Assembly (NCBI GenBank): GCA_965203805.1 | Contig: OZ241917.1 | Coordinates: 3,232,001-3,296,000 of the forward strand | Source: Candidatus Latescibacterota bacterium | GTDB taxonomy: Bacteria > Latescibacterota > UBA2968 > GCA-2709665 | Reading direction: 5' to 3' | Length of the DNA: 64,000 bases | In this document: positions 9,545 through 58,598 of the stretch, in pieces | Position numbering within the stretch: position 1 is the stretch's first letter | How the letters are laid out: each line of letters opens with the position of its first letter | Program-made: the position numbers and the translations under genes | The notes under the pieces: generated by a model | Told to the model about the DNA's origin: nothing | Databases searched by the model: none | Seen by the model: the letters and a program-made list of their open reading frames with translations, nothing else

Positions 9545-10660
9545 CACTGCCGGTGCTGAGCCTGTCGAAGCAAGCTTGCCGAAGTGCCTTGTCGAAGCGC
9601 CCTCGCTTACCGATCGTGGCAGGTCGCCATTCGGCGGACAAAACCACTTTGGAGCTAACCTACTGGGGGACAAGGGCTTTATCTCCCCCGCCAACTCTTA
9701 TTTTCTCTTCGTCCTTTTCAAAAAGCGGTGAGACGTAAGACGTGAGACGGGAGAGATTGCCTGCCCCGTGAGATTTCAGCTCAGACCGAAGGCATTGTGG
9801 AGGAGCGATTCGGGCAAGGATTTCTTCTACCGTCTACCGTTTCACCTCTCCCCGAATTTGAAGAAGCGTGCCGCTCGGCGCGGGGCCGGTTTTTCCGTGA
9901 ACCACCTCAGTGGCGTAAGTGGAAATTGGTTGCCCTGTCACCGTACCAGCCCTGCCGGAACTATGTTGCTAGACGGATTTGCACGGAAAAAACCCCCACT
10001 CCGCCACCGTTCGCTTGACTAAACTGCGCGAGGTTTGATGCATTTGCGATCTTGACGATTATGCGCTTGAGAACCCCCGACACCCCCACCAACCTACCCC
10101 CTATCCCCCTTCCCGAAGGAAGGGGGAACGGAGATCCTATCAGGGAGTCCTGGTTGTCTCCCCCTCTCCCCCCGGGAGAGGGGGTTGGGGGGAGAGGTCT
10201 GCGGCGTTGGGGGTGGTTCGCTCTCGGCTGATTGCAGTTGCTTTCCTTTGTGTCTTCGTGTCTTTGTGTGAGCAGATTTTCGTTTTTGATCTTGGCTATC
10301 GGTCGAGAGCTAACGTCTGCCCTCATCATCCAGGCACCCATCGGTTTACAAAGGTATATCCTGACCGGAGAACGACCAGAGCAGAGCGCGCTGATCCGTC
10401 CAGCAACGCGGTTCGATGTGCCTCCGAGGGTGTCGGGGCAAAGGATCCTGTGCATCCTGTGAGCGTGTTCGCGCTATGCATTTCGCAGGCCCCACGCCCA
10501 GTGGCGACTTTTGGTTCCTTTTGGTCGCTTTAAAAGGAACACGCCGTAGGCAGGGAATTTGGGGAGATGTGGATGTTGAATTTGATTCTTGTTTTTGATT
10601 TTCGCTCTTGCTTCAAGCTGACCGCTGATGGCTGACTGCTGAAAGCTGCTTTTCTCCTTC
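9545..10660 (+). repeat. Mosaic intergenic repeat locus 1 (modules A, C, REP arms, B)
   Basis: Modules shared with loci 2-7. Confidence 0.9.
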
Positions 10661-10693
10661 CGAATTCAGGCAACTTGTTTCCGGGAAAGAACA

Positions 10694-11434
10694 CTAGATT
10701 GTCTTGCCGCCGTCCACCACCAGAACCTGCCCGGTTACCAATTCGTTCACGACCAGGCCCAGAATCGCATTCGCGATATCTTCGGGTTCCGCGACGCGCT
10801 GGAGGGGCGTGGCTTCGCGATTCACGCGAACGAATTCCTCCCAACCCTTTACCCAGCGTGTGTTGACGATGCCGGGGGCCACGGCGTTTGCCCGGATGCG
10901 GGGCGCCTGGCTGACGGCCAGGGATTTGGTGAGGGAGATCAGCGCCGCCTTGGAGGCGCAATACGCGATGGAGCTGCCCTGCCCGCAGGTGCCGGCGATC
11001 GATGCTACGCTCACGATCTGGCCCCCTGCTTCGGGCATTCTGGCGATCGCCGCCCTGGCGCAGTAGAAAGCGCCTTTCACGTTGACGTCAAAGACGGGAT
11101 CCCAGGCGTCGTCGGTGAGGGCCTCGAGGTCGGCCAACGGCACGAAGACGGTGGTTCCCGCGTTGTTGACCAGGATGTCCAGCCGGCCCAGTTCTCCAAC
11201 CACACGGTCCACCATTTCGCGGACGGCGCTCTCGACCGACACGTCGGTGCGGATTGCGATCGAGTTTCGGCCAAGCGCACGGACATCGGCCGCCGTGGCT
11301 TCGGCTTCCTTCCTGGAACGCGAATAGTTGACGGCCACGTCGGCCCCTTCCGAAGCGAGCAGCAGGGAGGTCGCTCTTCCGATTCCCGTGCCGCCGCCGG
11401 TCACGAGCGTGACTTTTCCGTCCAAACGGCCCAT
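10694..11434 (-). CDS. SDR family oxidoreductase
   Basis: TGGGTGIG, NNAG, YCASK. Confidence 0.93.
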   Translation of the reverse strand: MGRLDGKVTLVTGGGTGIGRATSLLLASEGADVAVNYSRSRKEAEATAADVRALGRNSIAIRTDVSVESAVREMVDRVVGELGRLDILVNNAGTTVFVPLADLEALTDDAWDPVFDVNVKGAFYCARAAIARMPEAGGQIVSVASIAGTCGQGSSIAYCASKAALISLTKSLAVSQAPRIRANAVAPGIVNTRWVKGWEEFVRVNREATPLQRVAEPEDIANAILGLVVNELVTGQVLVVDGGKTI

Positions 11435-11477
11435 ATAGGATCCTTTCGATTTGGTGTATGGGAATTGTTTTCAAGAT

Positions 11478-12749
11478 CTACGGATCTGCAAACGGGATGG
11501 CGACGACGTCGCGGATGTCTGCTGAGTCGGCAAGCACCATCAGCAAACGATCCACGCCGAGGGCGATGCCGCCGGCCGGCGGCATGCCGGCTTCGAGGGC
11601 GCCCAGGAATTGCTCGTCGATCGGATAAGCCGGTCGACCGCTGTCCCGTCGCTGCGCCGCTTCTTCTTCCAGCCGGGCCCTCTGTTCGGCGGGGTCGTTC
11701 AGTTCCGTAAAAGCGTTGGCGAGTTCCACGCCCGAAACATAGAGTTCGAACCGCTCCGCGATGCCGGGCGCATTCTGTTTCAATCTGGCAAGCGCCGCCA
11801 TCTCCGCGGGGTAATCCACGAGGAAGGTTGGGCGTCCCGCGCCGAGGCGTTTTTCCACGGCATCCAGAAACACCTTGAAATAAGCGGTCTCAAACCCATC
11901 GCCGGGAACGACCGACAGGTGGCCGTTCCGGCGGGCTTCCCGGACGAACGCGTCGAGATTCTCCGAGGGATCGGCGGACACACCGGCGTACTTTGCAAAT
12001 GCTTCCCGCACGCTCAGGCGTTGCCACGGGGGGGTGAAGTCGACGGTTCGACCCCGGTACGCGATGGATGATTTCCCGGTGAGTTCACGTACCATGCCGT
12101 GAATCAGATTCTCCGTGTCACCCATGATGGTGGTGTAGTCGGCGTAGGCCCTGTACCATTCGAGAAGCGTGAATTCGGGGCTGTGCATGGGGCCGGGCGG
12201 GTCCTGGCGGAACGACTTGCAAATCTGGAAGATGCGTTCGTACCCGGCCGCCAGGAGGCGCTTCATCGCGTATTCGGGTGAGGTCGGCAGATAATACTGT
12301 TTCGCGTGCCCGTTGGCGCGGTAGTGGGTTTCGAAGGCGTCCAGATGGGGTTCCATACCCGGGCAGCGAACGAGAAGCGGCGTCTCGACTTCCAGGAATC
12401 CCGCGTCCTCGAAAAAACGCCTGACGTACGACAGAACCCAGGAGCGCATCCGCAGGATCCGCGATGCGGGTCCTGACTCTGGTGGGCGCAGGGCCGGCGC
12501 CAGAACCCGGTGGCTTCGGACGCGAAATGCAGGAGGCCGCCAGATGCCCCGAACCTCCACCACGTGTCCCGGCCGAAGCGTTCCCGGCGCCTCGAGGGTC
12601 ACCTCGCCCGACTCGTCAACCAGCCGTGGATTGTCCGCCCCCGCGCCGGCAGCGACCCGACCGGCCAGAATCGCTTCGTCACCCGGCGCCAGGTCCGAGA
12701 CGCGATGGGTACGGGCGCACCCCGCGGGATAGGTGTTGGATTCAGACAT
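11478..12749 (-). CDS. epmA: EF-P lysine aminoacylase EpmA/GenX with N-terminal extension
   Basis: TSPEYAMKRLL, HSPEFTLLEWY, ERFELY..GVELANAF, GIALGVDRL. Start inferred at MSESN. Confidence 0.85.
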   Translation of the reverse strand: MSESNTYPAGCARTHRVSDLAPGDEAILAGRVAAGAGADNPRLVDESGEVTLEAPGTLRPGHVVEVRGIWRPPAFRVRSHRVLAPALRPPESGPASRILRMRSWVLSYVRRFFEDAGFLEVETPLLVRCPGMEPHLDAFETHYRANGHAKQYYLPTSPEYAMKRLLAAGYERIFQICKSFRQDPPGPMHSPEFTLLEWYRAYADYTTIMGDTENLIHGMVRELTGKSSIAYRGRTVDFTPPWQRLSVREAFAKYAGVSADPSENLDAFVREARRNGHLSVVPGDGFETAYFKVFLDAVEKRLGAGRPTFLVDYPAEMAALARLKQNAPGIAERFELYVSGVELANAFTELNDPAEQRARLEEEAAQRRDSGRPAYPIDEQFLGALEAGMPPAGGIALGVDRLLMVLADSADIRDVVAIPFADP

Positions 12750-12894
12750 ACAAGTGTCCGGGAGTCCGCAGTCGCCGTGTGGTGCGGCAATGAATGAAAG
12801 ACCCTTCCGGAAAGGGCCATACGGAATATAGGATAACCGGTGTCGGGGAGCAACACGCATCCGTGCGGGACGGAACTCCGGATGGAAAAATCCC

Positions 12895-13450
12895 TTGCCG
12901 ACGGTTCTTTTGCGGTCATATATTTCGGAACAGCGTTCCGGGCGGTCCTGAACTTCACCTCTCCCATTTGCTTTTTTAAAAAAGCGGTGAGACGGTAGAA
13001 GGAAAAATGAAGAATGAAGAATTAAGAATGAAAACCTGAAGGCGGTGAGACGTAAGAGGGTAGACGGTAGTTAAAGGCGGTGAGAGGATAGAGGGTAGAC
13101 GTTAGATGACGTCCTTGCCCGATTGGTTTTATCGTTATGCCTGCGGCAAGAGATGATACCGAACAGGCAATCATATAATCTCACGTCTTACGTCTACCCG
13201 CTCTTCAGGCACTCATGTCATCTCCCGTCTCACGTCTCCCCTCTCACCGCCTTTCAGACCTACCCCCTTCCTATAAGGAAGGTGGAAAGCGGGATCCTAT
13301 CGCGAGGCGTTCGTTACCCTTTCCTTATAGGAGAGGGTCCCTGCCTGGCGGTGGTTTTTCGGCAGGCAGGGGGGAGAGGTCTGAGGGGTTGGGGGTGAGG
13401 GCGCTCTTGCTTCAAGCTGACTGACGAACGCTGATAGCTGACAACTGCAT
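12895..13450 (+). repeat. Mosaic intergenic repeat locus 2
   Basis: AAGAATT/GAATG heptamers, GAGACG arms with core C1, REP arm with CCTGCCTG palindrome. Confidence 0.88.
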
Positions 13451-17143: not shown

Positions 17144-17299
17144 AAAACCTCCCTTACGAGAAAGGCACGAGAAAACGAAAAGACGCGAGAAAACGAGAAG
17201 ACGAAGAAACGCGAGAAGACGAAGAAACGCGAGAAGACGAGTAACGGCGGTGGATTAAACCATCATAGACCGTATGTCATTACGCCGGCCGCACGGGCG

Positions 17300-17920: not shown

Positions 17921-17979
17921 GAAATGCTCCTCATGGTCAGCCAGATCCTCCTGTGGTATCCCGACACCGGTATGTCACT

Positions 17980-18675
17980 TCGCCTGTGGGTGGACAAACC
18001 GGCTTTGGATCTATCCTATTGGGGGACAATGACTTTATCTCTCCCACAAGCTCTCATTTTCTCTTCGTCCTTTTCAAAAAGCCGTGAGCCGTAAGACGCA
18101 AGACGGGAGAGGTTGCCTGCCCTGTAAGGATTCTGTTCAGGCTTGAGGCATTGATAATGAGCCGTTTGGGCAAGGATGTCTTCTACCGTCTCACGTCTTC
18201 CCGCTTTTTGAAGAACGGCGCCGCTCGGCGCGGGGCCGGTTTTTCCGTGAACCACCTCAGTGGCATAAATGGAAATTCGCTGCCCTGTCACCGAAACAGC
18301 CCATCCCGAACGATGTTGCTGGACGGATTTGCACGGAAAAACCCCCAACACCACCACCGTACGCTTGATTAGGAACTTACAAAGAACCGTACGGCGATGT
18401 TTCTGCGCGATGAAGCGTTTACAGACCCCCCAACACCCCCACCAACCTACCCCCTTTCCCCCTTCCCGGGGGGAAGGGGGACCCCCGGATCCTATCGCGT
18501 GGCGTTCGTTTCCCTTTCCTTATAGGAAAGGGTCCCTGCCTGCCGGTGGTTTTTCGGCAGGCAGGGGGGATAGGTCTGCGCATCCGCGAGGTCATGTCGC
18601 CAGGCCTTATCGTCGCCCCGTTGAAGCAGGATGTCATCTCCCGTTTTACGTCTCACGTCTCACGTCTCCCCGCTT
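17980..18675 (+). repeat. Mosaic intergenic repeat locus 3
   Basis: Module A interrupted by module C, plus REP arms. Confidence 0.9.
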
Positions 18676-20001
18676 TTATTCCAGGCCTTCCTCGCCCGCG
18701 TGGATGGACGCGAGGACCCACGGATCCCGGGTTTCAACCCGGAACGCCTTTACCTTCCGCCGCATCGCCTCCGCGATTTCCGCGACCTCGGGATCGTGAA
18801 TCAGATTGGTCGACTCCGCCGGATCGGCGTCGACGTCGAACAATGCTTCCGCATCCTGATGCAGGAATCGTTCCGTGGGGCGCCGCCCCATCATCCCGAT
18901 CCCCTCCGACAGGACCGCCTGCCACGTGGGGGACGCCCACAGATCGCCCGGTATCGGCGTGGTCAACTCGGGGTACAGATTGCGCACGTATTTGTACTTT
19001 CTCCCCCTCAACACGCGGTACGGATAATAGTTCGTCACCTCGTGGAACGAATGCGAAAAGAAAGTCTCGTCCCATCCTTCCGGATGCGTCTCGTCCAGAA
19101 TCGGAATCAGCGAGCGCTCGGGAAGCCCGTCCGGCGGATTCACGCCACACCACTCCAGAACCGTGGGCGCGATATTGCACCAGTTCACCAGCGCGTCGCA
19201 CCTGACGGACGGCGCGTCCGGCCGGACCAGGATCAACGGGCATCGATGCCCGGAGTCGAACGACGACCCCTTGGCGCCCGGAAACGGCATCCCGTGGTCG
19301 CTCATGACCACAATCAATGTATCCTTCGCCCGTCCGGCGGCCTCGAGCGCATCCACCGCCATCCCGATCCCCCGATCCAGCCTGGATACGGACTGATAAT
19401 ACTCCGCGAGTTCCCGCCGCACGGCGGGGTGGTCGGGCAGGAAATCGGGCACCACGACCTCGTCCGGCGAATAGTACACCTCTTCCACCCCCGGATACGT
19501 CTCCTGATTTCCGAAATTGCGATGCGGGTCTCCGAATCCCATATGCAGATAGAAGGGTCTGTCGCCGGTCTGCGCGAGAAACTCCCGGGCCTGTCCGGCC
19601 ATCTCAGCCACGTTCCGCGTACCGCCGCGCACCCGTTCCGCGTTGTACGTCCATGGATAGACCGCTTCGGGCTGAACGTGCAGCTTGCCCACAATCCCGG
19701 TGGCGAATCCCGCCGATCCGAGGGCGCCGGTGATGGAGGGCATGGACAGGTGGGTATGAAAATTATGGATCCCGTGCGTATGCCCGTACTGCCCGTGCGT
19801 ATGGCTGTAATGCCCCGTCAACACACACGCCCGGCTGGCCGCGCACGACGGCGTCGTGCAGAAGGCCCCGGCAAACACCGTTCCACGAGACGCCAGCGCA
19901 TCCACATTCGGGGTCCTGATCACCGGATTCCCGTAACATCCGGCAACCGGGCTCCAGTCGTCGGCAATCAACAGGAGCACGCTGCGATGTTCTGTCGCCA
20001 T
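18676..20001 (-). CDS. Sulfatase (sulfamidase/SGSH-like)
   Basis: IADD, formylglycine motif variant CAASR..LTG, GKLH, DPH, SDHG. Confidence 0.9.
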   Translation of the reverse strand: MATEHRSVLLLIADDWSPVAGCYGNPVIRTPNVDALASRGTVFAGAFCTTPSCAASRACVLTGHYSHTHGQYGHTHGIHNFHTHLSMPSITGALGSAGFATGIVGKLHVQPEAVYPWTYNAERVRGGTRNVAEMAGQAREFLAQTGDRPFYLHMGFGDPHRNFGNQETYPGVEEVYYSPDEVVVPDFLPDHPAVRRELAEYYQSVSRLDRGIGMAVDALEAAGRAKDTLIVVMSDHGMPFPGAKGSSFDSGHRCPLILVRPDAPSVRCDALVNWCNIAPTVLEWCGVNPPDGLPERSLIPILDETHPEGWDETFFSHSFHEVTNYYPYRVLRGRKYKYVRNLYPELTTPIPGDLWASPTWQAVLSEGIGMMGRRPTERFLHQDAEALFDVDADPAESTNLIHDPEVAEIAEAMRRKVKAFRVETRDPWVLASIHAGEEGLE

Positions 20002-26882: not shown

Positions 26883-28198
26883 TGGAGAACACGAGGGCTT
26901 CGCAGGCCCTTATCCGCGCCTATTTTCGACGCCACCCCGGTGAGGCCGCCCGGGCGCTGGCCTCGACGCCCGTCCCCGAGGCTCTCGATCTGCTTGAAAT
27001 CCAGGCAGGGGGCCGGGCCGCGCAGGTCTTCGAACGCATGGACCCGGATCGGGCCGTGGCGCTCATGGAACACATGGAGGAGCCCCTGTTCCGGAGGCTC
27101 TGGGGGGCGATGGACGAAGGCGTCGCCGCCTCACTCCTCGCCCGGCTGTCGCCGGAGAACCGTTCCGCGCGTCTTTCCTCGCTGCCTGTGAGGCTGGCCG
27201 GCGAAATGAAAGAACTGATGAGCTACCCGAACGGGTCGGCCGGGCAGATCATGGATTGCTCGGTCACCGTTTTCAGCGCCGAGGAGTCCGCGGAGGAAGC
27301 GCTCACCCGCATCCGCTCGTTTCCGGAGCGCCGCATTCTGGATCTGTGTGTCGTGGATGATGACGGGAAGCTGACGGCGGTGCTTCCGCTGCAGGAAGTC
27401 GCGGTCGCCCAGCCCGAAGACCGCCTTGGACAACTGGCGCATGGCCCGCCTGTCTACGTGCAGGCCATGTCATCGCGGGAGGAAGTGGTTGAACTGCTCG
27501 AGGCCCACAAATTGGCGTCGCTGCCTGTAATCGGCGGCGTCGACGGGCGGCTTTGCGGAATCATCCGGCACGACGCCCTGGTGGTGGCCGCCAGGCACGA
27601 TGCAAGCGAAAACGTGCAGACGATGGTCGGCGCCGGCAGAGAAGAACGCGCCCTTTCCGGGCCGGCGCTTGCCGTGCGCAACCGGATGCCATGGCTGCAG
27701 GTCAATCTGGGCACGGCCTTTCTGGCAGCCGCGGCGGTCGCTCTGTTCGAGGATACCATCGCCAGGTTTACCGCGCTGGCCGTATTTCTTCCGGTGGTTG
27801 CGGGCCAGGCCGGCAATACCGGCGCACAGGCGCTGGCCGTGGCCTCCCGCGGTCTGGCGCTGCGCGAGTTCAGGCCGCGCCGGTGGTTTCCCGTTGCCCG
27901 CAAGGAACTGCTGGCCGGGTTTGTCAACGGACTCTCGGTGGCGCTGGTCGCGTCTCTGGCGGCCTACCTGTGGTCCGGAACGACCGGGCTTCCCCTCGTT
28001 CTGGGCGTGTCCATGGTGTTTTCCATGTCCATGGCCAGTCTCACGGGGGCGCTCATTCCCATTGTGCTTACGGCCCTGGGAAAGGACCCGGCGCAGTCGG
28101 CGTCGATCTTCCTGACCACCGTAACCGACGTCATCGGGTTCGTCAGCTTTCTGGGCCTGGCCACACTGATGGCGACATCGTTCGGGATGACACTGTAG
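26879..28198 (+). CDS. mgtE: Magnesium transporter MgtE
   Basis: CBS pair, RMPWL, GNTGAQ, DPA...TTVTDVIG. Confidence 0.9.
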   Translation: MMENTRASQALIRAYFRRHPGEAARALASTPVPEALDLLEIQAGGRAAQVFERMDPDRAVALMEHMEEPLFRRLWGAMDEGVAASLLARLSPENRSARLSSLPVRLAGEMKELMSYPNGSAGQIMDCSVTVFSAEESAEEALTRIRSFPERRILDLCVVDDDGKLTAVLPLQEVAVAQPEDRLGQLAHGPPVYVQAMSSREEVVELLEAHKLASLPVIGGVDGRLCGIIRHDALVVAARHDASENVQTMVGAGREERALSGPALAVRNRMPWLQVNLGTAFLAAAAVALFEDTIARFTALAVFLPVVAGQAGNTGAQALAVASRGLALREFRPRRWFPVARKELLAGFVNGLSVALVASLAAYLWSGTTGLPLVLGVSMVFSMSMASLTGALIPIVLTALGKDPAQSASIFLTTVTDVIGFVSFLGLATLMATSFGMTL

Positions 28199-28204
28199 CG
28201 TAAC

Positions 28205-29225
28205 GGCGAAGGAAGAAGGAAGATCGAAGAAGGAAGAAGGAAGAAGAAAAACCTGAGAGCGGTGAGACGGGAGAAGGAAAAATTAAGAATGAAGAATTAA
28301 GAATGAAAACCTAAAAGCGGTGAGACGTAAGAGGGTAGACGGTAGATGACATCTTTGCCCGATTGGTTCGTCCCTTATGCCTGCGGCAAAAAGTGTAACC
28401 GGACGCGGCGGACAATCTCTCCCGTCTCCCGTCTTACGCCTACCCTTTTCGAGACCTACCCGCTAACCCCCTTCCTGCGAGGAAGGGGGTTAGCGGGATC
28501 CTATCGCGTGGCGTTCGTTACCCTTTCCTTATAGGAGAGGGTCCCTGCCTGGCGATGGTTTTTCGGCAGGCAGGGGGGAGAGGTCTGCGGGGCTGGGGGT
28601 GAGGACGCTTTCGCTTCAAGCTGACTGCTGGTTTCTGGTTTGGTTTTCTTTGTGTCTTCGTGTCTTTGTGTGAGCCGATTTTCGCTTTTGATCTTGGCTA
28701 TAGGTTGAGAGCCAACCGCTCTCCTCATCAATAAGACGCCTATTGATCTACGAACGGATCTACTGACCGGAGGACGACCAGAGCAGAGCGCGCTGATCCG
28801 TCCGGCGACGCGGTTCGATGTGCCTCCGAGGTTGTCAGGGCAGAGGATCCTGTGCATCCTGTAAGCGTGTTCGCGCTATGCATATGGCAGGCCCCACCTG
28901 CCTGCCGCGCGGGGCTTGGCGCAGGCAGGCGCCCAGTGGAGACTTTTGGTTCCTTTTGGTCGCTTCAAAAGGAACACGCCGTAGGCAGGGAACTGTAAAA
29001 AATTAAGAATGAAGACCTGAAAGCGGTGAGAGGGTAGAGGGTAGATGAAGGCGGTGAGACGGGAGACGGTAGATGATGACGTTACCACAGTGTTTTTCAC
29101 GCTAACCGTGCCTGTTTCTTTACCGATATGGTAACGACAAGAAAGACCATAGGGCACTGATGTCCTCTCCCGTCTTACGTCTCACGTCTCACCAGGGGGG
29201 GAGAGGGGTTGGGTGGAAAGCTCCC
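28205..29225 (+). repeat. Mosaic intergenic repeat locus 4
   Basis: Cores C1 and C2, module B with a 33-nt insert, REP arms. Confidence 0.9.
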
Positions 29226-29226
29226 G

Positions 29227-30003
29227 CTATTTCCCGCCCTGACCGCCTGACTTTATATTCCCGATCAACTCGATGATGTCGTCCGTAACGTCCATTACGT
29301 GAACCCCCGCTGGCACGACGAATTCGAATTGTCCTTCGTTGAACTTTACGTTTGTCTTCATCGTCTCAAACCGCCGCGACAGCAGTTCCCGGCCCTGCGC
29401 GTTATAGTACCTCATCTCCCGTAACAGGCCATCCTCCGGGTGGACCGAGAAACGGACCCGGGCAGGCGGTTCCGGCAGGTCCGCATACAGCAGCGTGACC
29501 TCGGGTACGGCCTCGAACACGCGAAGGATCTCGCCCTTCAACGTGTCCGTCGCGGAATAGCGGATCGACTTCCACTCCAGCGCCCGGAAGGGGCGCAAGG
29601 GATTCGGCTGGTCCGCGTCCGCCTCGACCCGCGTCGACCGGTAGACCCTCGCCGTGTTGACACGATAGACGATCTTCTCCTCGGGGTCGTATCGCCACAA
29701 CAGGCTGCCGTCCGACACAATCGTCTGGCGGATCCGGCCGGCCAGCACACGCGTCACGTACATCCTGACCGGCGCCTGTATGGCGATATCGTCCAGAATC
29801 TCATATTGCTCGCCCTCCACGGTCAGCAGCGTTCTGACCCGGGTCTCACAGGTCTTAACCGATTTCAGCTTTTCCTGAATCGCGACCATCAGACCATCGG
29901 TTTTGGAATCGCCGGTTGACATTTTTTCCGCGCTCGCCCTTCCTCCCATTGCCGCCACACACAGCGCAAGAAAGAACGCCGGCGTTATCCGAACGGTAAA
30001 CAT
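29227..30003 (-). CDS. LolA-like outer-membrane lipoprotein carrier fold protein
   Basis: Signal peptide, IVSDGSLLWRYDP, FEFVVPAGV. Confidence 0.75.
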   Translation of the reverse strand: MFTVRITPAFFLALCVAAMGGRASAEKMSTGDSKTDGLMVAIQEKLKSVKTCETRVRTLLTVEGEQYEILDDIAIQAPVRMYVTRVLAGRIRQTIVSDGSLLWRYDPEEKIVYRVNTARVYRSTRVEADADQPNPLRPFRALEWKSIRYSATDTLKGEILRVFEAVPEVTLLYADLPEPPARVRFSVHPEDGLLREMRYYNAQGRELLSRRFETMKTNVKFNEGQFEFVVPAGVHVMDVTDDIIELIGNIKSGGQGGK

Positions 30004-36364: not shown

Positions 36365-36379
36365 CCGCGCACATCCGCA

Positions 36380-36420
36380 AAAGAGGGGCGCTGCAACTCG
36401 CAGCGCCCCTCTTTTTATTT
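36380..36420 (+). terminator. Intrinsic terminator
   Basis: AAGAGGGGCGCTGC-aactc-GCAGCGCCCCTCTT followed by a T-tract. Confidence 0.8.
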
Positions 36421-36424
36421 GGGA

Positions 36425-37880
36425 ATCGGTGAGACGGGAGAAGGAAAAATGAAGAATTAAGAATGAAAACCTGAAGGCGGGGAGACGGTAGAGGAAACGA
36501 CCCGCTGGTTCCGGTTTGCCTATGGCATCCTGACAGGGCGCCTGTCGGCGGACAAACACCCGTTGGAACTGCGTTCCGGGCGATCCCAAACTTCACATCT
36601 CTAATTTACTTTTTTCTTCTTCGTCCTTTTTCTTATCCACGTGTACGGACCAAAAAGAAGCGTGCCTGCCTGCCGAGCAGGCTTCGGCGCAGGCAGGCCG
36701 CTCAAACGCCGCGGGGCTGCTTTTCCGCGAACCGCTTCCGTGGAGACACCGGGAGACGTTGCCCTGAAACCCTTACAGGCGTACCTGGACGACGTTGCTG
36801 GACGGACTCGCGCGGAAAAGCCCCATCCCCACCGCCATGCGCTTGAGTGAACTGCGCGAGGTTTGATGCATTTGTGATCTTGACGATTATGCGCTTGAGA
36901 ACCCCCGACACCCCCCCCCAACCTACCCCCTATCCCCCTTCCCGAAGGAAGGGGGAACGGCGATCCTATCAGGGAGTCCTGGTTGTCTCCCCCTCTCCCC
37001 CCGGGAGAGGGGGTTGGGGGGAGAGGTCTGCGGGGCTGGGAGTGGTTCGCTCCTGGCTGCTTCGTTTTTCTTCGTGTCTTCGTGCCTTTGTGTGAGCTGA
37101 CTTTGAATCTTGTTCTGACTATCGCTTCTGTTTCTGGCTGACTGCTGCTTTTCCCCCCTCCTCAGACCTACCCCCTAGCCCCCTTCCTGTGAGGAAGGGG
37201 GAACGGCGATGGGTCGATGGACCAGGCATGCAGACGTGCCGGCTGGCGAATTCCTGTCTATCAGTGTATCTATAGATGACCGGCACGCGATGACTGTCTT
37301 TTCTCCCCCTCTCCCCTTGGGAGAGGGGGCCTGCCTGCCGAGCAGAACTCGGCGCAGGCAGGCCGGGGGGAGAGGTCGCGTAAAAGCGGTGAGACGTAAG
37401 AGGTTAGACGGTAGATGAAGGCGGTGAGACGGTAGAGGTTAGACGGTAGATAATAACGTTACCACAGTGTTTTCACGCTAACCGTGCCTGTTTCTTTACC
37501 GATATGGTAACGACAAGAAAGACCATAGGGCACTGATATCATCTCCCGTCTTACGTCTCACGTCTCCCCGCCTTTCAGACCTACCCCCTAGCCCCCTTCC
37601 TGTGAGGAAGGGGGAACGGCGATGGGTCGATGGACTGGGCATGCAGACGTGCCGGGCTGGCGATTTCCTGTCAATCAGTGTATCTATAGATGACCGGCAC
37701 GCGATGCCTGTCTCTTCTCCCCCTCTCCCCCCGGGAGAGGGGGTTGGGGGGAGAGGTCTGCGGGGCTGGGGGTGGTTCGCTCCTGGCTGCTTTGTTTTTC
37801 TTCGTGTCTTCGTGCCTTTGTGTGAGCTGATTTTCGCTCTTGACTCAAGCTGATTGCTGATGGCTGATTGCTGTTTTTCG
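36425..37880 (+). repeat. Mosaic intergenic repeat locus 5
   Basis: Divergent module A, three REP-arm units (two with a duplicated cargo), core C2. Confidence 0.9.
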
Positions 37881-38855: not shown

Positions 38856-38906
38856 TTACATTTCCTTTACGGTATTCGATCCCAACCCGCCGGTTACGGC
38901 CGGTTT

Positions 38907-41681: not shown

Positions 41682-41884
41682 ATTTTCTCCTTTTTCAAGA
41701 CCACGACGAAACGATGAATTCGACCACAAGAAAACAAAAAAACCGCTTTCTGTCAGCAAAAACATTTCGGCGGGCCGGCGCGGACATGGCGCCGCGCCTA
41801 ATCGTTGACATCCGGCGGCGCCTTTGTCTTATTATCCGTAACGCACATTTGCTTCGGCGGCCCGACCCGAATCAGGAGAAAACC

Positions 41885-42673
41885 ATGTCGGAATTTCAGG
41901 ATAAAGCGGTCATCGTCACCGGCGGCGCGAAGGGCATCGGCAGCGGCATCTGCCTGGCATTCGCCAGAGAGGGCGCCCGCGTGCTCTGCGCCGACGTGGA
42001 CGCGAACGCCGGCGATCGTCTGGCCGCGGAAAGCGACGCCCTCCCGGGCCATATCCAGTTCCAGGAGGCGGACGTCGCGCGTGACGACGCGTGCCGCGGG
42101 CTCGCGCGGACCTGCGTTTCGGAATGGGGCAGCGTGGATATCCTCTGCAACAACGTGGGCATCCAGCCGACACACAGCTACCTGCCTGCCCACGAACTGC
42201 CCGAAGACACGTGGGACGCCATCCTGAACGTCAACCTGAAGAGCGCCTTTCTGATGACGCGTCACTGCGTCCCCGAGATGATTAAACGCGGGGGCGGCGT
42301 GATTATCAACACGGCCAGCGTCCAGGGTCTCCAGTCCACCAAAGGCGTCTGCGCCTACGCCGCCAGCAAGGGCGGCATCCTTTCGCTGACGCGGCAACTC
42401 GCCCTGGAATACGCCGAACACAACGTGCGGGTGCTTGCGGTCAACCCCGGCACGATCGACACCCCTCTGGTCGACGAAGCCCTGAAGGCCACGGGCGGCG
42501 ACGAGAAGGAACAGCGCGAACGGATGGGCCGGTCCCATCCCATCGGCCGGATCGGGACCCCCGACGAGGTCGCGCAGGCCGTGCTGTTCCTCGCCAGCGA
42601 AAAAGCCTCGTTCATGACGGGCGAGAACGTGTGCGTGGACGGCGGCATGATGGCCAAAGGCGCCTGGAGCTGA
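41885..42673 (+). CDS. SDR family oxidoreductase
   Basis: TGGAKGIG, YAASK, PIGRIG. Confidence 0.93.
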   Translation: MSEFQDKAVIVTGGAKGIGSGICLAFAREGARVLCADVDANAGDRLAAESDALPGHIQFQEADVARDDACRGLARTCVSEWGSVDILCNNVGIQPTHSYLPAHELPEDTWDAILNVNLKSAFLMTRHCVPEMIKRGGGVIINTASVQGLQSTKGVCAYAASKGGILSLTRQLALEYAEHNVRVLAVNPGTIDTPLVDEALKATGGDEKEQRERMGRSHPIGRIGTPDEVAQAVLFLASEKASFMTGENVCVDGGMMAKGAWS

Positions 42674-42702
42674 TCACCCGTCCAGGGCCGCAACAGAACC
42701 CT

Positions 42703-43182
42703 ATGGACTATCATCCGTTTATCGTCCACTTCCCCGTCGCCCTGCTCACCGTCGGATTCTTCTGCGACGCCGCCGGCATTTTTCTCCGCAGGGACCACCT
42801 CCTCCGCACCGGCTACCTCCTCCTGGTTCTGGGCGCGGTCTCCGCGATCGCGGCCGCGGTCACGGGAGACGCGGCCGAGGATTCGGCCGCCGGAATCCCC
42901 GGCATCGCCGCCGCGCTCGAGCAGCACGCGTCCATCTCCACCGCAGCCACATGGCTGGCCATCGGGCTTGCCCTCTTCCGCACCCACCTCACCGTCAAGG
43001 GAAAATTCTCCGGAAACCTCCGATTCGTATATCTCGCCGGCGCGGCGGCAACGGCGGTTCTCGTTGCCGTCAGCGGGTACACCGGAGGGCGAATGAGTTA
43101 CGAATACGGGCCGGGTGTCAGGCCTGTGATGGAAATTCACTCCCCCCGCAATCCGGCTCCGGGAGAGAAGACCCCCGATTGA
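42703..43182 (+). CDS. DUF2231-like membrane protein
   Basis: HPFIVHFPVALL, H in the third helix, GYTGGRM.YEYG.GV. Confidence 0.82.
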   Translation: MDYHPFIVHFPVALLTVGFFCDAAGIFLRRDHLLRTGYLLLVLGAVSAIAAAVTGDAAEDSAAGIPGIAAALEQHASISTAATWLAIGLALFRTHLTVKGKFSGNLRFVYLAGAAATAVLVAVSGYTGGRMSYEYGPGVRPVMEIHSPRNPAPGEKTPD

Positions 43183-43244
43183 CTCCGCGAGTGGTACAGA
43201 AATGCTGCGATGTTCCTGCCTCGGATTTCCCATGGTTGCTTTAT

Positions 43245-44525
43245 AGTTCGCCTGACGGCGGAAGAACACCCTTTGAAACTAACCTCCGGCAGGACAAGGG
43301 CTTAACCTCTCCCACAAACTCTATTTTCTCTTCGTCCTTTTTCTTGTACGCCCAAGAAAAAGGACCAAAAAGAACGGCGCCTGCCTGCCGAGCAGGCTTC
43401 GGCGCAGGCAGGCCGCTCGGCGCGGGGCCGGTTTTTCCGTGAACCACCTCAGTGGCGGAATTGGAATTTAGGTGCCCTGTCACCGGACCAGCCCATCCCG
43501 AACGATGTTGCTGGACGGATTTGCACGGAAAAACCCCCCACTCCACCACCGTACGCCTATTAGGACCACATGATGTTTGGAACGAAAATATCGCTAGCGA
43601 TTGTGCGTTTAAAAACCCCCCTCACCACCGCCGACCTACCCCCTATCCCCCTTCCCGGAGGGAAAGGGGGAACGGTGATCCTTTCAGGGTGTCCTGGTTG
43701 TCTCCCCCTCTCCTCACAGGAGAGGGGGCCGGGGGGAGAGGTCGCGTAACAGCGGGGAGACGTAAGAGGTGAGACGTTAGATGACGTCCTTGCCTGATTG
43801 GATCTTACTTTATGCCTGCGGCAAGAAATGAAACCGTACAGGGCACACAATATCTCCCGTCTTACGTCTCCCGTCTCCCCGCCCTTAGGGAATTTGGGGA
43901 GCTATGGATGTTGAATCTGATATTCGCTCTTGCTTCAAGCTGACTGCCGAATGCTGACCGCTGTTTGGTTTTCTTTGTGTCTTTGTGTCTCCGTGTGATA
44001 GGAATTTCGGTTTCGACTAAGCTCCGACGCCTGTCTTTTCTCCCCCTCTCCCCCCGGGAGAGGGGCCGGGGGGAGAGGTCGCGTAAAAGCGGTGAGACGT
44101 AAGAGGTGAGACGTTAGATGACGTCCTTGCCTGATTGGATCTTACTTTATGCCTGCGGCAAGAAATGAAACCGTACAGGGCACACAATATCTCCCGTCTT
44201 ACGTCTCCCGTCTCCCCGCTCTTCAGGCACTCACGGTATCTCCCGTCTAACGTCTCCCGTCTTACCGCCCCTCAGACCTACCCCCTTTCAGGGTGTCCTG
44301 GTTGTCTCCCCCTCTCCCCCCGGGAGAGGGGGCCGGGGGGAGAGGTCTGCGGGGCTGGGGGTGGTTCGCTCTCGGCTGAATGCTGACAGCTGTTTCTCAA
44401 CGGCAGGGAATTTGGGGAGATGTGGATGTTGAAGTTGATTCTTGTTTTTGATTCTCGCTCTTGCTTCAAGCTGACTGCCGAATGCTGACCGCTGTTGGCT
44501 GGTTGGGCGGCCGGGGGGAGAGGTC
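43245..44525 (+). repeat. Mosaic intergenic repeat locus 6
   Basis: Intact module A and a duplicated C1 unit (~43730-43880 and ~44068-44220). Confidence 0.9.
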
Positions 44526-44663
44526 TCGTTTCGTTCTTGATCGGAGGGGCGTTGTACGCTACCTTTCCAGCGAATGACGCGAGCGCGTCTACGCCGTTAC
44601 GGGCGCCGTTTTCGCCGCGGCCCGGACACTTTCACATCGGGTTGTTCGGAAGGGACCGACAGC

Positions 44664-47012
44664 ATGCACCCCGCGCCACATCCACCGTTTCGCACCGCCG
44701 CCGTCCTGGGCGCGGGCGTTATGGGATCGCAGATTGCCGCCCACCTGGCCAACGCCGGACTGTCCGTTCATCTTCTGGATCTTCCGGGCGGCGAAAGAAA
44801 CCGAAACGGGATTGTCGACGGCGCGCTGAAAGGACTCGAGCGTCTCAACCCCGCCCCCCTCTTTACGGAAGGAACCGCCCGCCGCATCACCCCCGGCAAT
44901 ATCGAGGACGACTTCCACCGTGCGTCCGAAGCGGACTGGATCATCGAAGCGGTCGTGGAGAAACCGGACGTCAAGCAGGAGATCATGGCGCGCGTGGAAT
45001 CCGCCGCGAACCGCCATGCCGTCATTTCCACCAACACCAGCGGCATTCCGATCCACCTGATCGCGCAGGGACGGTCCGCCGATTTCAGGCGGCGCTTCCT
45101 CGGCGCGCACTTCTTCAACCCGCCGCGCTACCTCAAGCTCCTCGAACTCATCCCCCTTCCCGATACGGATTCATCCGTTGTCGATCGCATTTCCCGGTTC
45201 GGCAGCGAACGGCTCGGGAAAGGCATTGTTGTCGCGAACGACACGCCCGGCTTCATCGGCAACCGCATCGGCGTGTACGCCATGATGCAGTGTATCCGGG
45301 CCTTTACGGATGAGGGGTATACGATCGAGGAAGTCGACGCCCTTACAGGCCCGCTGCTGGGACGTCCCAGGTCCGCCACGTTCAGAACTGCGGACGTTGT
45401 CGGTCTGGATACGCTCGTGCACGTTGCGGGTTACCTCCACGATGCCCTGCCGAACGACGAAAGCCGGGACGGGTTCCGGGTTCCCGAAGTGGTCGACCGG
45501 CTGGTTGCGGACGGCGCCACCGGCGCCAAGGCGGGCAGCGGGTTCTATAAGAAAGAGGGCCGAAACATCCTCTCGTTCAACCCCGAGACCCGGGCATACG
45601 ACCTGCCGGCGGAACCAGGACTGGGCGACCTCGAACCCGTTCGGAAACAGAGGGACCTTTCCCGGCGCCTTTGCGACCTCTACGCGAACGACGGGCGGGC
45701 GGGCGCTTTCTTCCGGAACCATCTCCTGGAAGTCCTGTCGTACAGCGCTCGCCGCATCCCGGAGATCACCGCCAATCCGGCCGACATCGACCGCGCGCTT
45801 CGCTGGGGATTCGGCTGGGAGGCAGGGCCCTTCGAAATGTGGGATATGATCGGATTCGATACCCTCCTCGGGGACATGGCCGCCGAAAACATCCCCCTGC
45901 CGGGCTGGATCGAAAGCATGTCCGGGGCGGGCGCCGCGGGATTCCGCGACCGCTCGCGGGTCTATACGCCGGATCGCGGATACGTGCGGGAATCGGGAGA
46001 AGAAAACGCCTCGCCCGCGGTTCGCACGGACAAGCCCCACGTCCGGTGGCGAAACGAGGACGCCGTTCTCCTGGACTTGGGAGAGGACATCGCCCTCTTC
46101 GAATACCGCTCCAAGGCAAACTCCATGGGCGAGACACTCGTTCGCGGGCTTGTTGACGCGGTCGACATCGTCGAATCGGGAAATTACCGCGGCATGGTCA
46201 TCTGCAACGGAGGGAAGAATTTCTCGGTGGGCGCCAACCTGGGGGAGATGGTCGCGCACGCGGAGCAGAAACGCTTCGATCGGATGCACGGACTCATTGT
46301 CAATTTCCAGCAGATGATCCAGCGTGTCCACTATTCCGCCAGACCGGTCGTCGTCGCCACCCACGGCCGCGTCCTTGGCGGCGGCTGCGAACTCACGCTG
46401 GCCTGCGCCAGTCCCGTGGCCGCGGCGGAATCCTACATCGGACTCGTGGAACTGGCCGTGGGACTCATCCCCGGCGGCTGCGGCACCATGCGCATGGCGG
46501 CGATTTCGCACGAGCGGGCTTCATCCGAGCAGGACAGCCACATCCAGCCCTTCCTGACCAGGGCCTTTGAAACGGTGGCGACGGCAAAGGTATCCAACAG
46601 CGCCCATCAGGCTCGGGAGTACGGGTTCCTTCCGCCGGCGTCGCCCATTGTGATGAACCAGGACCACCGGCTGGACGCCGCCAGACAGGAAGTCCTGCGC
46701 CTCTCGAACCAGGGATACGCGCCGCCGCCGGTCCGCAACGGCATCCGGGTACTCGGGCAGCCGGCCCGCGCGCGGTTCGAAGTGACGACCTACAATATGC
46801 TCCGTTCGGGTTTCATCTCCGAATACGACCGCTATCTGGCGAACCGGTTCGCGTACGTGCTGACCGGCGGAGACCTCAGCGGTCCCGCGAACGTACACGA
46901 AGACTATCTCCTCGAGCTGGAACGCGAAGTGTTCGTCGCCCTTACGGGCGAAGAGAAGACCCGGGAACGCATCTACAGCATCCTCCGAACCAACAGACCC
47001 CTGAGAAACTAA
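44664..47012 (+). CDS. 3-hydroxyacyl-CoA dehydrogenase/enoyl-CoA hydratase (FadN-type)
   Basis: GAGVMG, HFFNPPRYL, FSVGANL, LGGGCE, PLRN terminus. Confidence 0.92.
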   Translation: MHPAPHPPFRTAAVLGAGVMGSQIAAHLANAGLSVHLLDLPGGERNRNGIVDGALKGLERLNPAPLFTEGTARRITPGNIEDDFHRASEADWIIEAVVEKPDVKQEIMARVESAANRHAVISTNTSGIPIHLIAQGRSADFRRRFLGAHFFNPPRYLKLLELIPLPDTDSSVVDRISRFGSERLGKGIVVANDTPGFIGNRIGVYAMMQCIRAFTDEGYTIEEVDALTGPLLGRPRSATFRTADVVGLDTLVHVAGYLHDALPNDESRDGFRVPEVVDRLVADGATGAKAGSGFYKKEGRNILSFNPETRAYDLPAEPGLGDLEPVRKQRDLSRRLCDLYANDGRAGAFFRNHLLEVLSYSARRIPEITANPADIDRALRWGFGWEAGPFEMWDMIGFDTLLGDMAAENIPLPGWIESMSGAGAAGFRDRSRVYTPDRGYVRESGEENASPAVRTDKPHVRWRNEDAVLLDLGEDIALFEYRSKANSMGETLVRGLVDAVDIVESGNYRGMVICNGGKNFSVGANLGEMVAHAEQKRFDRMHGLIVNFQQMIQRVHYSARPVVVATHGRVLGGGCELTLACASPVAAAESYIGLVELAVGLIPGGCGTMRMAAISHERASSEQDSHIQPFLTRAFETVATAKVSNSAHQAREYGFLPPASPIVMNQDHRLDAARQEVLRLSNQGYAPPPVRNGIRVLGQPARARFEVTTYNMLRSGFISEYDRYLANRFAYVLTGGDLSGPANVHEDYLLELEREVFVALTGEEKTRERIYSILRTNRPLRN

Positions 47013-47262
47013 CTTTGATTCGTCATTATTCGGGGACGTTAATTCGAATATGCGCAAGTGAATAAAGGCGATTTAACTGCAGATTTCCATGATCCTTCAG
47101 GTCACTGGATGTGAACGGAAAAAATGTCGTTCCGGACGACCTTTTCGGCCCGTTTCGGAAGGATTCGTCGCAGCGACCCGTTGCTGTTTTTGTCGAATTA
47201 CGGTTAATCCCCGCGCCATCCGGTCCGCCTGATGGCGTGTAAAAGAAGAGGTCGAATCCGCC

Positions 47263-55313: not shown

Positions 55314-55323
55314 CTTGTTGCCG

Positions 55324-56427: not shown

Positions 56428-57572
56428 ATCGCATCCTCCTGACTATCCGATCCTCGGGGAAATTGCGCGAGGGCGCGCTGATTCGATGTACTTTTTCATA
56501 ACGCCTGTCGGCCGGTAATGGTTGCAGGGAACTGAAGAGAAGGAAGAAGGAAAAAGGAAGAAGGAAGAAGGAAGAAGGAAAACCGGTTGTGGTCCTCGTT
56601 CGTATTATCCATCATGTCCTGACAGGCCGCCTGCCGGCGGACAGACACCCGTTGGAACTAACCTCCTGGGGGACATTGACTTTACTCCTCCAACCAACTT
56701 TCATTTTCTCTTCGTCCTTTTTCTTGTACGCCCAAGAAAAAGGACCAAAAAGAACGGCGCCTGCCTGCCGAGCAGGCTTCGGCGCAGGCAGGCCGCTCGG
56801 CGCGGGGCCGGTTTTTCCGTGAACCACCTCAGTGGCGCAATTGGAATTTGGGTGCCCTGTCACCGAAACAGCCCTGCCGGAACTATGTTGCTGGACGGAT
56901 TTGCACGGAAAAACCCCCCTCTCCACAACCGTCCGCTTGATAGGAACTTACAAAGCACCGTACGGCGATGTTCCTGCGCGCTGGAGCGTTTACAGACCCA
57001 CCAACCTACCCCCTATCCCCCTTCCCGGGGGGAGGGGGAAACTGTGATCCCCTCGTGGTGTCCTGGTTTGCTCCCCCTCTCCCCCCGGGAGAGGGGGCCG
57101 GGGGGAGAGGTCTGAGGGGTTGGGGGTGAGGGCGCTCTTGATTCTGGCTGACGGCTGAGAGCCGACCGCTGATTGCTGCTCTAAGGAAGGGAGAAAGCGG
57201 GATCCTATCGCGTGGCGTTCGTTACCCTTTCCTTATAGGAGAGGGTCCCTGTCTGGCGGTGGTTTTTCGGCAGGCAGGGGGGAGAGGTCTGCGTAAATTC
57301 GGGGAGACGTAAGAGGGTAGACGGTAGATGAAGACATTTACCGCAGTGTTTCTACATAAACCGTGCCTGTTTTTTTACCGATATGGTAACGACTGGAAAA
57401 ACCATGGGGCACTGATATCATCTCCCGTCTCACGTCTACCCGCCTCCGCCGACCTACCCCCTATCGCGTGGCGTTCGTTACCCTTTCCTTATGGGGCTTA
57501 TATACTTAACTTGATATTTGTTTTAGGTTGTTCTACCAATCAACCCGTCAACATCACAGAGGAGAAGTTGAT

Positions 57573-57845
57573 ATGAAAAGGGACCTTGAATTGCGAGATT
57601 GGATCCTAACAGTGCTCGAAGACGCTGATGATCCATATTTGAGCCAGTATGTAATCATCGAAAGAGTAAATAAATCAACTAACGACGAATACACCGAAGA
57701 GCAAATCCTCCACCATATACTCCTCGCCTCTGATATGGGTCAGGTGAAAGTGAACAACGGCGAAATTCGCCTCACAAACGACGGCCATAATCATATTGAA
57801 AAGATGAGGGAACCATCACGAGCTAGTTTGCCGCCAGATCAATAG
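57573..57845 (+). CDS. DUF2513-like winged-helix protein
   Basis: GAGGAG RBS; MKRDLEL..IL...HHILL..D.G...RLT.DGH. Confidence 0.7.
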   Translation: MKRDLELRDWILTVLEDADDPYLSQYVIIERVNKSTNDEYTEEQILHHILLASDMGQVKVNNGEIRLTNDGHNHIEKMREPSRASLPPDQ

Positions 57846-57970
57846 TAAAACGCTTGCCGATCACACAGAGAAAGACTTGCGCCATCTGAACATTAATGTC
57901 CAACTGGCGCGCGTTGTTCTTTGGGGCCAACAACCCTCCCGCAGACGCCCTAGAAACAAGAGAATACCAT

Positions 57971-58225
57971 ATGAGCTTCATGATCAGCTACGATATGGGA
58001 GACGATGCAAACTACGAAAAAATCATAACGCGTCTCAATCTCCTCAATGGAAAACCCATCCTCAAATCCCAATGGATCATAAATTCACCATTATCGATTG
58101 AGCAACTATTCGACATCCTCAGTCCTTCTATCGGCCGAAAGCACCACCTCCTAATCATGCCCATCGGAGATGCCCTTTCAAGATCCAAAGGCCGTCGCCT
58201 TCCACGATGCTGGCGCGAATTTTAG
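57971..58225 (+). CDS. Standalone Cas2/VapD-like small ferredoxin-fold protein
   Basis: MISYDM....YEKI..RL......ILKSQWII pattern. Confidence 0.55.
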   Translation: MSFMISYDMGDDANYEKIITRLNLLNGKPILKSQWIINSPLSIEQLFDILSPSIGRKHHLLIMPIGDALSRSKGRRLPRCWREF

Positions 58226-58312
58226 GCTCCGAGAAACTACCTTCAAAGCATCCTTCTCCTCTTTCGACTCCGGCTCAAACGTCAAACTTCCATCTCGCCA
58301 GTAAACACGCAC
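58178..58312 (-). CDS. 44-aa micro-protein (below the ORF track cutoff)
   Basis: TATAAT, then AGGAGG 5 nt before GTG; MRVYWRDGSLTFEPESKEEKDALKVVSRSLKFAPASWKATAFGS. Confidence 0.5.
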   Translation of the reverse strand: MRVYWRDGSLTFEPESKEEKDALKVVSRSLKFAPASWKATAFGS

Positions 58313-58598
58313 CCAAGCCTCCTATCTATTAATTATATAGTATTTCGATCCCTAGAAAACGACGGGACACCCATTGACCGGTCTGCAAAACCGCGAGGGT
58401 GTACCACCTCTCCCGCACAAAACCTATATCAAGTTAAGTATATAAGTCCTTTCCTTATAGGAGAGGGTCCCTGCCTGGCGGTGGTTTTTCGGCAGGCAGG
58501 GGGGAGAGGTCTGAGGGGTTGGGGGTGAGGGCGCTCTTGATTTTGGCTGACGGCTGATAGCTGACCGCTGATTGCTGCTCTACCGAACGTTTTCACAC

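Follow-up and report, generated by a model that had tools for sequence, protein, structure and literature searches.

The window analysed here is a stretch of 64,000 nucleotides from a Candidatus Latescibacterota genome (the source genome G000, a single contig of 5.87 Mb with 59% GC; G000:C1:3232001-3296000), situated 350-400 kb left of the origin. Between its ordinary metabolic genes lie seven intergenic mosaics built from one kit of repeat modules, namely the long elements A and B, P elements with a short or a long core, GAGACG-heptamer elements with core C1 or C2, AAGAA-type arms, CTTCGTGT arms and GCTGAC tails. Together the mosaics total 8,202 nt, which is 12.8% of the window, or 7,242 nt without an inserted cassette. 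A preliminary description of this DNA had reported that the asymmetric modules read on the + strand at every mosaic although the flanking genes are tandem, convergent or divergent, and both statements hold: all three kinds of gene pair are present on the gene map, and the motifs GGGAGAGGTCTG, CTTCAAGCTGAC, GTGTCTTCGTG and ACCTACCCCCT occur 9, 5, 4 and 10 times on + and never on − in the window. Genome-wide, their counts on + and − are 38/39, 13/7, 11/14 and 39/34. We consider it probable that the mosaics are genus-wide slots with a fixed direction and species-specific content, which is rewritten by gene conversion from slot to slot in the direction of the recipient, in a manner resembling neisserial intergenic mosaic elements (NIME) and bacterial interspersed mosaic elements (BIME).

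All seven mosaics are read on +. Slot 1 (9545..10660) consists of a small hairpin, an A broken by a reversed heptamer element, a short-core P, a CTTCGTGT arm, B and a GCTGAC tail, and is young, as G001 has A plus P alone at this place and the flanking genes overlap in G012. Slot 2 (12930..13450) holds an A remnant, an AAGAATT arm, a heptamer element C2, a short-core P with a CCTGCCTG hairpin and a GCTGAC tail. It is empty in G001, G012 and G008, and the sigma-70-like promoter match that ends just before it (12895..12924, +; 9/12, a consensus match only) is kept in relatives whose slot 2 is empty. In slot 3 (17960..18680) an A with a reversed heptamer element is followed by P and a heptamer right arm; the relatives carry one C2 element (G001) or two (G012) here. 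Slot 4 (28200..29225) starts from the mgtE stop codon with AAGAAGG/AAGAATT arms and continues with C2, P, a CTTCGTGT arm, B with a hairpin insert, and C1. An AAGAATT arm, A, three P elements (one with a short and two with long cores), C1, CTTCGTGT arms and a GCTGAC tail make up slot 5 (36420..37880), where the gap measures 1,516 nt in G000 versus 246 in G001 and 190 in G012. Slot 6 (43230..44530) contains an intact A with a CCTGCCTG hairpin, P, two C2 elements spaced 337 nt and 98% alike across 162 nt, and GCTGAC and CTTCGTGT tails, and slot 7 (56530..58585) an AAGAAGG arm, an intact A, P elements, C1, GCTGAC tails and the cassette. Just two heptamer elements, both nested in A, are reversed: one on − at 9720..9855, replacing the central hairpin of A, and likewise one at ~18084-18210. 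Core C1 had been named as the exception to the common orientation. A reversed element does exist, but its core aligns with the reverse of C2 (scores 46 and 48 versus 12-21 in the other three tests), which is maybe what had been called C1.

Mapping with profiles of 13 modules, built on G000, gives 118 loci genome-wide, of which 117 have a direction. As many as 29 of them, and 29.4 of the 50.6 kb of all locus DNA, fall in a zone of 235 kb (3.241-3.475 Mb) whose left part is formed by the window mosaics. Along this zone 13 loci read +, the following 14 read − and the last two read + again, with flips at 3.33 and 3.46 Mb. These two switches compare with 14.5 in shuffled orders, and none of 100,000 shuffles was as low. 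The main switch adjoins two large secreted-protein genes (FlgD-Ig, cohesin domains) and a slot with a DUF559 gene, and both main blocks point at it. Three close slots just left of the switch (3322943-3326573) have between them a Uma2-family gene together with a short gene remnant, and a GxxExxY gene that lacks module arms is conserved at 3.308 Mb throughout the genus.

The preliminary description had proposed replication-strand-biased spread, to be checked by looking for a flip of orientation at origin and terminus. dnaA lies at 3.640 Mb, oriC was placed at 3.6395 Mb, and what we take to be DnaA boxes and two parS-like sites stand beside dnaA; the GC-skew terminus is at ~0.825 Mb. No flip occurs at 3.6395 Mb or at ~0.825 Mb, and both zone flips lie within one replichore. 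The modules read with the fork at 61 of 117 loci in G000 (30+/24− left, 37+/26− right; Fisher p 0.85), and, judged by the P left-arm motif, at 58 of 115 loci in five relatives. Replichore bias is therefore rejected in all six genomes, and same-strand repeats in one window need not imply replication bias. Locus direction is likewise without a link to the long-term leading strand estimated from codons (p 0.54 for 99/117 loci, the estimate being 83% accurate per gene in clean regions) and to the direction of adjacent genes (the same in 38 of 76 tandem contexts). When genes were scanned for k-mers that flip, just pieces of heptamer arms did so. The loci favour the origin-proximal half (90/118 in G000, 93/115 in the relatives), a preference also described for the TM/BoxC motif of E. 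coli (PMC4666352), and for about 40 kb on either side of oriC the slots point away from it. One slot close to dnaA (3645615-3645745) runs from the mnmE stop codon directly to a parS-like site in all six genomes. In the origin-proximal half (2.1-5.0 Mb) codon blocks of leading and of lagging type form a patchwork, and the terminus half is clean; the block boundaries are not enriched at module loci.

The same slots were found across species. For this comparison 400 kb were taken from each of five congeners, G001 and G012 with ~93% gene identity and G002, G008 and G013 with 81-87%. The zone region is collinear, with no inverted gene among 211-256 orthologues per genome. Modules are present in 56 intervals, of which 45 are occupied in at least two genomes, and 37 of these 45 show a single polarity. 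When genomes are compared pairwise at shared slots, 336 of 366 pairs have the same polarity and merely 31 of 366 the same set of module classes; among the pairs with no class in common, 152 of 174 still agree in polarity. All six genomes share the position of the 3.33-Mb switch. With the 52 unmixed slots pooled (4 mixed intervals excluded), 17 switches were counted versus 25.3 expected (p 0.012). Lengths differ as well: the gaps at the seven window sites sum to 8,975 nt in G000 versus 2,351 and 2,432 nt in the two nearest relatives, a ~3.7-fold difference, and the slots of the relatives also carry further REP-like (repetitive extragenic palindrome) classes. The few lineage-specific slots comprise, by our reading, about six that agree with the block around them and four lone P elements that disagree.

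An inversion at the switch is rejected, both by the congeners, which have no inverted orthologue, and by three other genera of the family (G015, G017, G020; G016 is without a usable left marker), where the flanking marker blocks keep their order and relative orientation. We could also reject that the zone is duplicated or contaminant DNA, given that it has no excess of paralogues, and that slots are inversion breakpoints, as 5 of 35 skew boundaries lie within 1.5 kb of a locus versus 2.6 expected (p 0.11).

The content of a slot points to other slots of the same genome and not to its counterparts. Of the 26 G000 slots whose orthologous slot is occupied, 25 find their best match in a tract of another G000 slot rather than in the orthologue. 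Tracts of at least 150 nt and at least 88% identity that span two or more module classes number 25; the longest has 768 nt at 90%, and six join a + slot to a − slot. Copies differ by 5-25%, and their divergence is independent of distance and of polarity block, with no distance decay in seven module tests, which suggests that direction belongs to the recipient slot. Exchange between mirror positions around 3.331 Mb was significant for one of seven modules (left part of A, rho 0.31, p 0.003; right part of A, p 0.04; five null). Inside the slots the 5′-to-3′ order is fixed, in that AAGAA arms, A or a heptamer left arm come first and GCTGAC and CTTCGTGT arms last. The GCTGAC tail was first in none of 75 cases and last in 43, and the AAGAA arm was first in 17 of 23; as arms, GCTGAC and CTTCGTGT modules are confined to the right side.

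Trans-acting genes flanked by modules had been suggested as a target for search, and such genes were found for DUF559, four-helix-bundle and GxxExxY proteins, the first and last of which we presume to be PD-(D/E)XK-type. A P element (e.g. 10088..10200, +) consists of a left-arm ACCTACCCCC hairpin, a core, and a right arm CCCCTCTCCC..GGGAGAGGGG..GGGGAGAGGT; judged by eye, its two arms are BoxC/TM-type motifs in inverted arrangement. Mosaic slots at 3.336 and 3.344 Mb, in the centre of the zone and beside the switch, each hold a DUF559 gene (3336187-3336567 and 3343588-3343980). At the shared slot that corresponds to 3.336 Mb in G000, DUF559 is present in four of the six genomes (G000, G001, G002, G013) and not in G012 and G008, and a DUF559 remnant lies near the same slot in G014. 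This slot has tandem P arrays with species-specific cores. The P cores of G013 match the 3′ end of the DUF559 gene (z 14.3, 10.9), and one variant joins the 5′ and 3′ ends of the gene. As many as 72 of 77 P core copies are found in the zone around the two DUF559 genes, 4% of the genome, compared to 10 of 73 for C2, and this local confinement would fit a DUF559 nuclease that nicks its own arms. Metagenomes yielded 17 DUF559 loci with 12 longer matches; a BoxC-type arm was seen in 6 of these 12 by strict pattern and in all 12 (8 distinct) by eye. Immediately behind the DUF559 gene of G013 (L083), trailer plus right arm is repeated five times in tandem. In an unrelated metagenome contig (L250) a BoxC-type arm lies upstream of DUF559 and one of CTTCGTGT type downstream of it, which indicates that mixed arms are not confined to this genus.

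Other arm classes have partner genes too. In relatives, GAGACG-heptamer arms bracket a four-helix-bundle gene (TIGR02436), and the slot occupied by this heptamer-armed subfamily varies with the species, three such slots being known. A second four-helix-bundle subfamily is bracketed by GCTGAC arms, and in G012 and G007 a GxxExxY subfamily by CTTCGTGT arms. The core of the heptamer element C1 (e.g. 29066..29195, +) aligns with the last codons and trailer of the heptamer-armed gene (z 6.7, 6.6, 3.5); the comparison of cores and genes was negative without the trailer and gave matches once it was included. The four-helix-bundle proteins resemble Avd weakly (E 2e-4 and 1e-5, below cut-off). Nine of nine passenger genes in slots read in slot polarity, which for the G000 four-helix-bundle slot was taken from arms and relatives. 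From these alignments, the modules are likely to be mostly gene-less, internally deleted derivatives of small-gene elements. A degenerate GACGAGAA-type heptamer/18-mer array between genes at window positions 17156-17240 resembles the arms of the four-helix-bundle gene at 3.084 Mb of G000. Our literature search, outside of which most subscription papers and supplements lay, found no paper tying DUF559 to palindromic or BoxC repeats, none tying four-helix-bundle or GxxExxY genes to repeats such as these, and none on slot polarity or on these repeats in Latescibacterota.

Element A (e.g. 43238..43610, +) and element B (e.g. 10280..10545, +) are inverted relatives (z 9.6). Covariation supports their stems in 7 of 24 pairs, and a loop-to-flank pairing is kept in 14 of 17 variants versus 9.8 shuffled (p 0.006, uncorrected for kinship); in A this pairing would form a predicted pseudoknot. 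The unit A-spacer-B-GCTGAC tail recurs at 2.648, 4.179 and 4.839 Mb. The conserved A core is matched exactly by 35 stretches of the genome collection, each of them from a Candidatus Latescibacterota record, and the habitats of sequencing runs holding at least half of the stretch, where named, were sponge, coral or marine metagenomes. The CCTGCCTG hairpin inserts seamlessly in other repeats, with an exact empty allele for 45 of 153 contexts, some pattern matches being spurious. No target duplication was seen at these inserts or at the slot edges inspected; the cassette in slot 7 alone has one. A separate REP-like doublet family of the GGTGGGGCAGACATTCCTGTCTGC type (window 1749-1955, 3070-3096) is also hit by this hairpin.

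The cassette (57493..58449, 957 nt, strand not assigned) is AT-rich, has terminal inverted repeats of ~17 nt and a target duplication of 8-9 nt, and was inserted in a P right arm. It contains two small open reading frames (ORFs), at 57573-57845 with a weak DUF2513 match (E 3e-4) and at 57971-58225 with no family, and no transposase, and is missing from the slot in G001 and G012. We take its ends to be IS1595-like, and similar ends occur in G000 at 0.475, 1.764, 2.210/2.214 and 3.325 Mb. The claim that the window lacks a transposase stands as far as its 43 ORFs compared with Pfam are concerned, but this cassette was not listed in the preliminary description. A search of the window at Rfam gathering scores gave no match. 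Outside the mosaics, genes for a MjaI-type restriction nuclease and an N4/N6 methylase and an NYN-domain gene (window 3644-6423) were not found at this place in G001 and G012 as far as mapped. An AT-rich repeat of 200 nt at 47010-47210, outside the module kit and absent at the same site in G001 and G012, has at least 15 other G000 copies at 86-93%, one of them between dnaA and dnaN. In G011 C4, ~6.5 kb orthologous to window 48.6-56.4 kb is present twice, the second copy inverted beside an A hit, which is either a real duplication or an assembly fault.

The assembly was compared with contigs of 4 sequencing runs from 4 studies over window 27500-45000. Unique DNA is covered, and the contigs of run X1 show no differences and enter the mosaics (to 28223; 29154-36461; 37801-43351). 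No contig of the four runs bridges a whole mosaic in this interval, so the inner module order of each G000 mosaic rests on the assembly. Five congeners, assembled separately, hold modules at the same places.

These observations can be joined in the following scheme. The slots would have been founded before the genus split, and the modules would be non-autonomous, internally deleted forms of DUF559, four-helix-bundle and GxxExxY elements. Recombination may start at hairpin arms or at arms prone to triplex formation, with DUF559-type nucleases perhaps nicking their own arms, and tracts would then be copied from slot to slot. Because the left and right ends of a slot are unlike, a copied tract would land solely in the resident direction. 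Unequal exchange could produce the tandem arrays and the ~3.7-fold growth in G000, and the polarity blocks of 90-120 kb might result from short-range seeding by neighbours together with the loss of nearby inverted copies. Orientation-preserving gene conversion of mutually targeting non-autonomous elements had already been put forward in the preliminary description. The kept polarity with changed content and the nesting of the CCTGCCTG hairpin in other classes agree with that proposal, and conversion itself is the part that we infer.

Several points weigh against this scheme. Polarity is mixed in 8 of the 45 shared intervals, and the four lone P insertions (in G013 and G008) oppose their block. 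Genome pairs are not independent, and profiles trained on G000 under-call the content of relatives, so that some of the 174 pairs counted as having no common class may share diverged arms. Outside the zone neighbour concordance is weak, with 18 same and 8 opposite within 10 kb and 28 and 34 beyond. The long P core of G000 compared directly with DUF559 gives z 1.8-2.2, which is not significant, and is linked to the gene via the G013 cores (z 4.6, 7.5); for A and B, no partner gene was found in 1,228 ORFs from slots and A-centred loci. All nine passenger genes are also co-directional with their host operon, so that the two effects are inseparable. No exchange event has been caught between strains or in reads, and repeated targeted insertion and deletion could yield the same pattern.

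Direction could alternatively be imposed from outside the slots. Each element would then insert by its own site-directed reaction, and chromosome position, through local folding, a strongly transcribed surface-protein locus or unannotated antisense transcription, would set the orientation. This is consistent with the polarity kept in 152 of 174 pairs without a common class, with a switch that lies in six genomes at the FlgD-Ig/cohesin genes beside the DUF559 slot and is faced by both blocks, with the slots pointing away from oriC for ~40 kb on each side, and with the seamless hairpin inserts (45/153 exact empty alleles). The shared multi-class tracts with identical junctions nevertheless demand block copying, annotated gene direction has no link to polarity (38/76), flipping k-mers in genes are solely heptamer-arm pieces, and mirror exchange reaches significance for 1 of 7 modules; we regard a positional cue of this kind as rather doubtful. 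Equally tentative is a more far-reaching form of the slot hypothesis, namely a common cassette-exchange system in which one direction-reading pathway writes DUF559, the two four-helix-bundle subfamilies, GxxExxY and A/B, moves genes as well as empty modules, and has since the age of the genus maintained chromosome-scale polarity domains that converge on the DUF559/surface-protein locus. If true, chromosome polarity would have a heritable layer of its own that depends neither on replication nor on annotated transcription.

Spread by a single-strand (HUH) transposase of the REP-associated tyrosine transposase (RAYT) type with replication-strand bias seems highly improbable, since the modules read with the fork at 61 of 117 loci (p 0.85; codon strand p 0.54; relatives 58/115) and flip within one replichore, without an inversion at the flip in the genus or in three other genera of the family. 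G000 does have two Y1 transposase genes, of which one sits within a REP array of its own, a G013 slot contains a RAYT-like fragment close to P-type arms, insertions leave no target duplication and the origin-proximal half is preferred (90/118, 93/115); the RAYT genes, however, are ~1.1 Mb from the zone and carry other arms. That the sense strand of the partner genes coincides with slot polarity (9/9), that GCTGAC and CTTCGTGT modules are solely right arms and that the four-helix-bundle proteins match Avd weakly (E 2e-4, 1e-5, below cut-off) would suit an RNA route, by which transcripts of the slots would undergo reverse transcription and enter new sites in the sense direction, producing chimeras that retain their 3′ ends. 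We find this very unlikely, as the one reverse transcriptase of the genome is 1.6 Mb away with an antiviral DRT-type family as its best match, below cut-off, one in two slots of tandem context runs antisense to its genes, and the conserved slot positions are left unexplained. The mosaics might finally be assembly chimeras of repeats, given that no short-read contig spans one and that the gaps of G000 are ~3.7 times those of its two nearest relatives (8,975 versus 2,351 and 2,432 nt). Copies that differ by 5-25%, slot edges and orientation seen in contigs of separate runs, and slots and polarity shared by five other assemblies make this explanation exceedingly improbable.

For the origin and turnover of bacterial intergenic mosaics such as BIME, NIME and BoxC, this genus is a natural experiment, offering ~45 shared slots, six collinear genomes, partner genes for three repeat classes, cores that are gene relics, and a polarity that outlasts changes of content. 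It makes testable whether each of the DUF559, GxxExxY and four-helix-bundle proteins acts on the arms that flank its gene, and whether direction is kept by slot-to-slot conversion.

Compared to known systems, the mosaics differ from integron cassette arrays in that the tyrosine recombinase of the zone matches XerD above cut-off, the other two tyrosine recombinases being untyped, and no Rfam match exists in the window. They differ from IS200/IS605-type elements in an orientation that is not tied to the lagging-strand template (61/117, 58/115). Miniature inverted-repeat transposable elements (MITEs) are non-autonomous internal-deletion derivatives. The order of left arm, gene remnant and right arm is MITE-like, and a gene-carrying form exists (C1 and the G013 P cores; the long core of G000 indirectly), but for P, H or T elements neither a transposase partner nor a target duplication was seen, and copies pile into existing slots. 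The exclusion of inverted Alu pairs, as far as the accessible text describes it (PMC3215922), provides an analogy from a eukaryotic retroelement for a loss of nearby inverted copies that leaves same-direction neighbourhoods.

The right arm of P, with its pyrimidine run, purine run and purine tail, is by eye comparable to Table 1 of the work on BoxC/PIT/TM(ECO) repeats (PMC4666352), and the published pattern would predict a triplex for the P arms, which resemble a triplex-forming repeat. Also as in BoxC/TM, the left and right arms make up an inverted pair of two loop types, lie between genes and near the origin, and have no genome-wide strand bias. That paper found no link to mobile elements (PMC4666352), whereas in the present genomes DUF559 genes and gene relics stand between such arms, and as many as eight elements can follow each other in an array.

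More extensive parallels exist with REP/BIME and REPIN-RAYT systems as described in the accessible text of three papers (PMC3333891, PMC3116915, PMC3733652): a vertically kept small gene flanked by repeat doublets of its own, further doublets at other places that lack the gene, single loci where copies are amplified in tandem and linkers vary, and unrelated elements that cluster by mutual insertion. TnpA-REP recombines BIMEs in vitro (PMC3333891). The partners here are DUF559, GxxExxY and four-helix-bundle proteins and not Y1 transposases, and some cores are gene relics. The GTAG/CGTC tag was found on none of the window modules, and the Y1 genes of G000 carry arms other than those of the window modules. 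At 4533200-4534800 of G000 a RAYT-type gene lies in an array of its own REP doublets, and the same REP class is present in zone slots of G002.

NIME arrays, composed of dRS3 plus RS, are described as syntenic yet dynamic (PMC1797815). They share with the present mosaics the intergenic arrays, the inverted arms around many core families, the syntenic positions with variable content and length, the insertion of other elements into them and, at the zone centre, a place beside surface-protein genes. The mosaics differ in having at least six unrelated arm classes per slot, several with their own partner gene, and in a polarity kept across species and in blocks of 90-120 kb, which is absent from the passages of that paper on NIME (PMC1797815). 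The dRS3 arm (20-bp ATTCCC-N8-GGGAAT) is in none of the repeat families of the window, a dedicated genome-wide dRS3 search not being part of the analysis. Although they fail the defining sequence and enzyme tests of both systems, the mosaics thus behave like NIME and like REP/BIME-RAYT.

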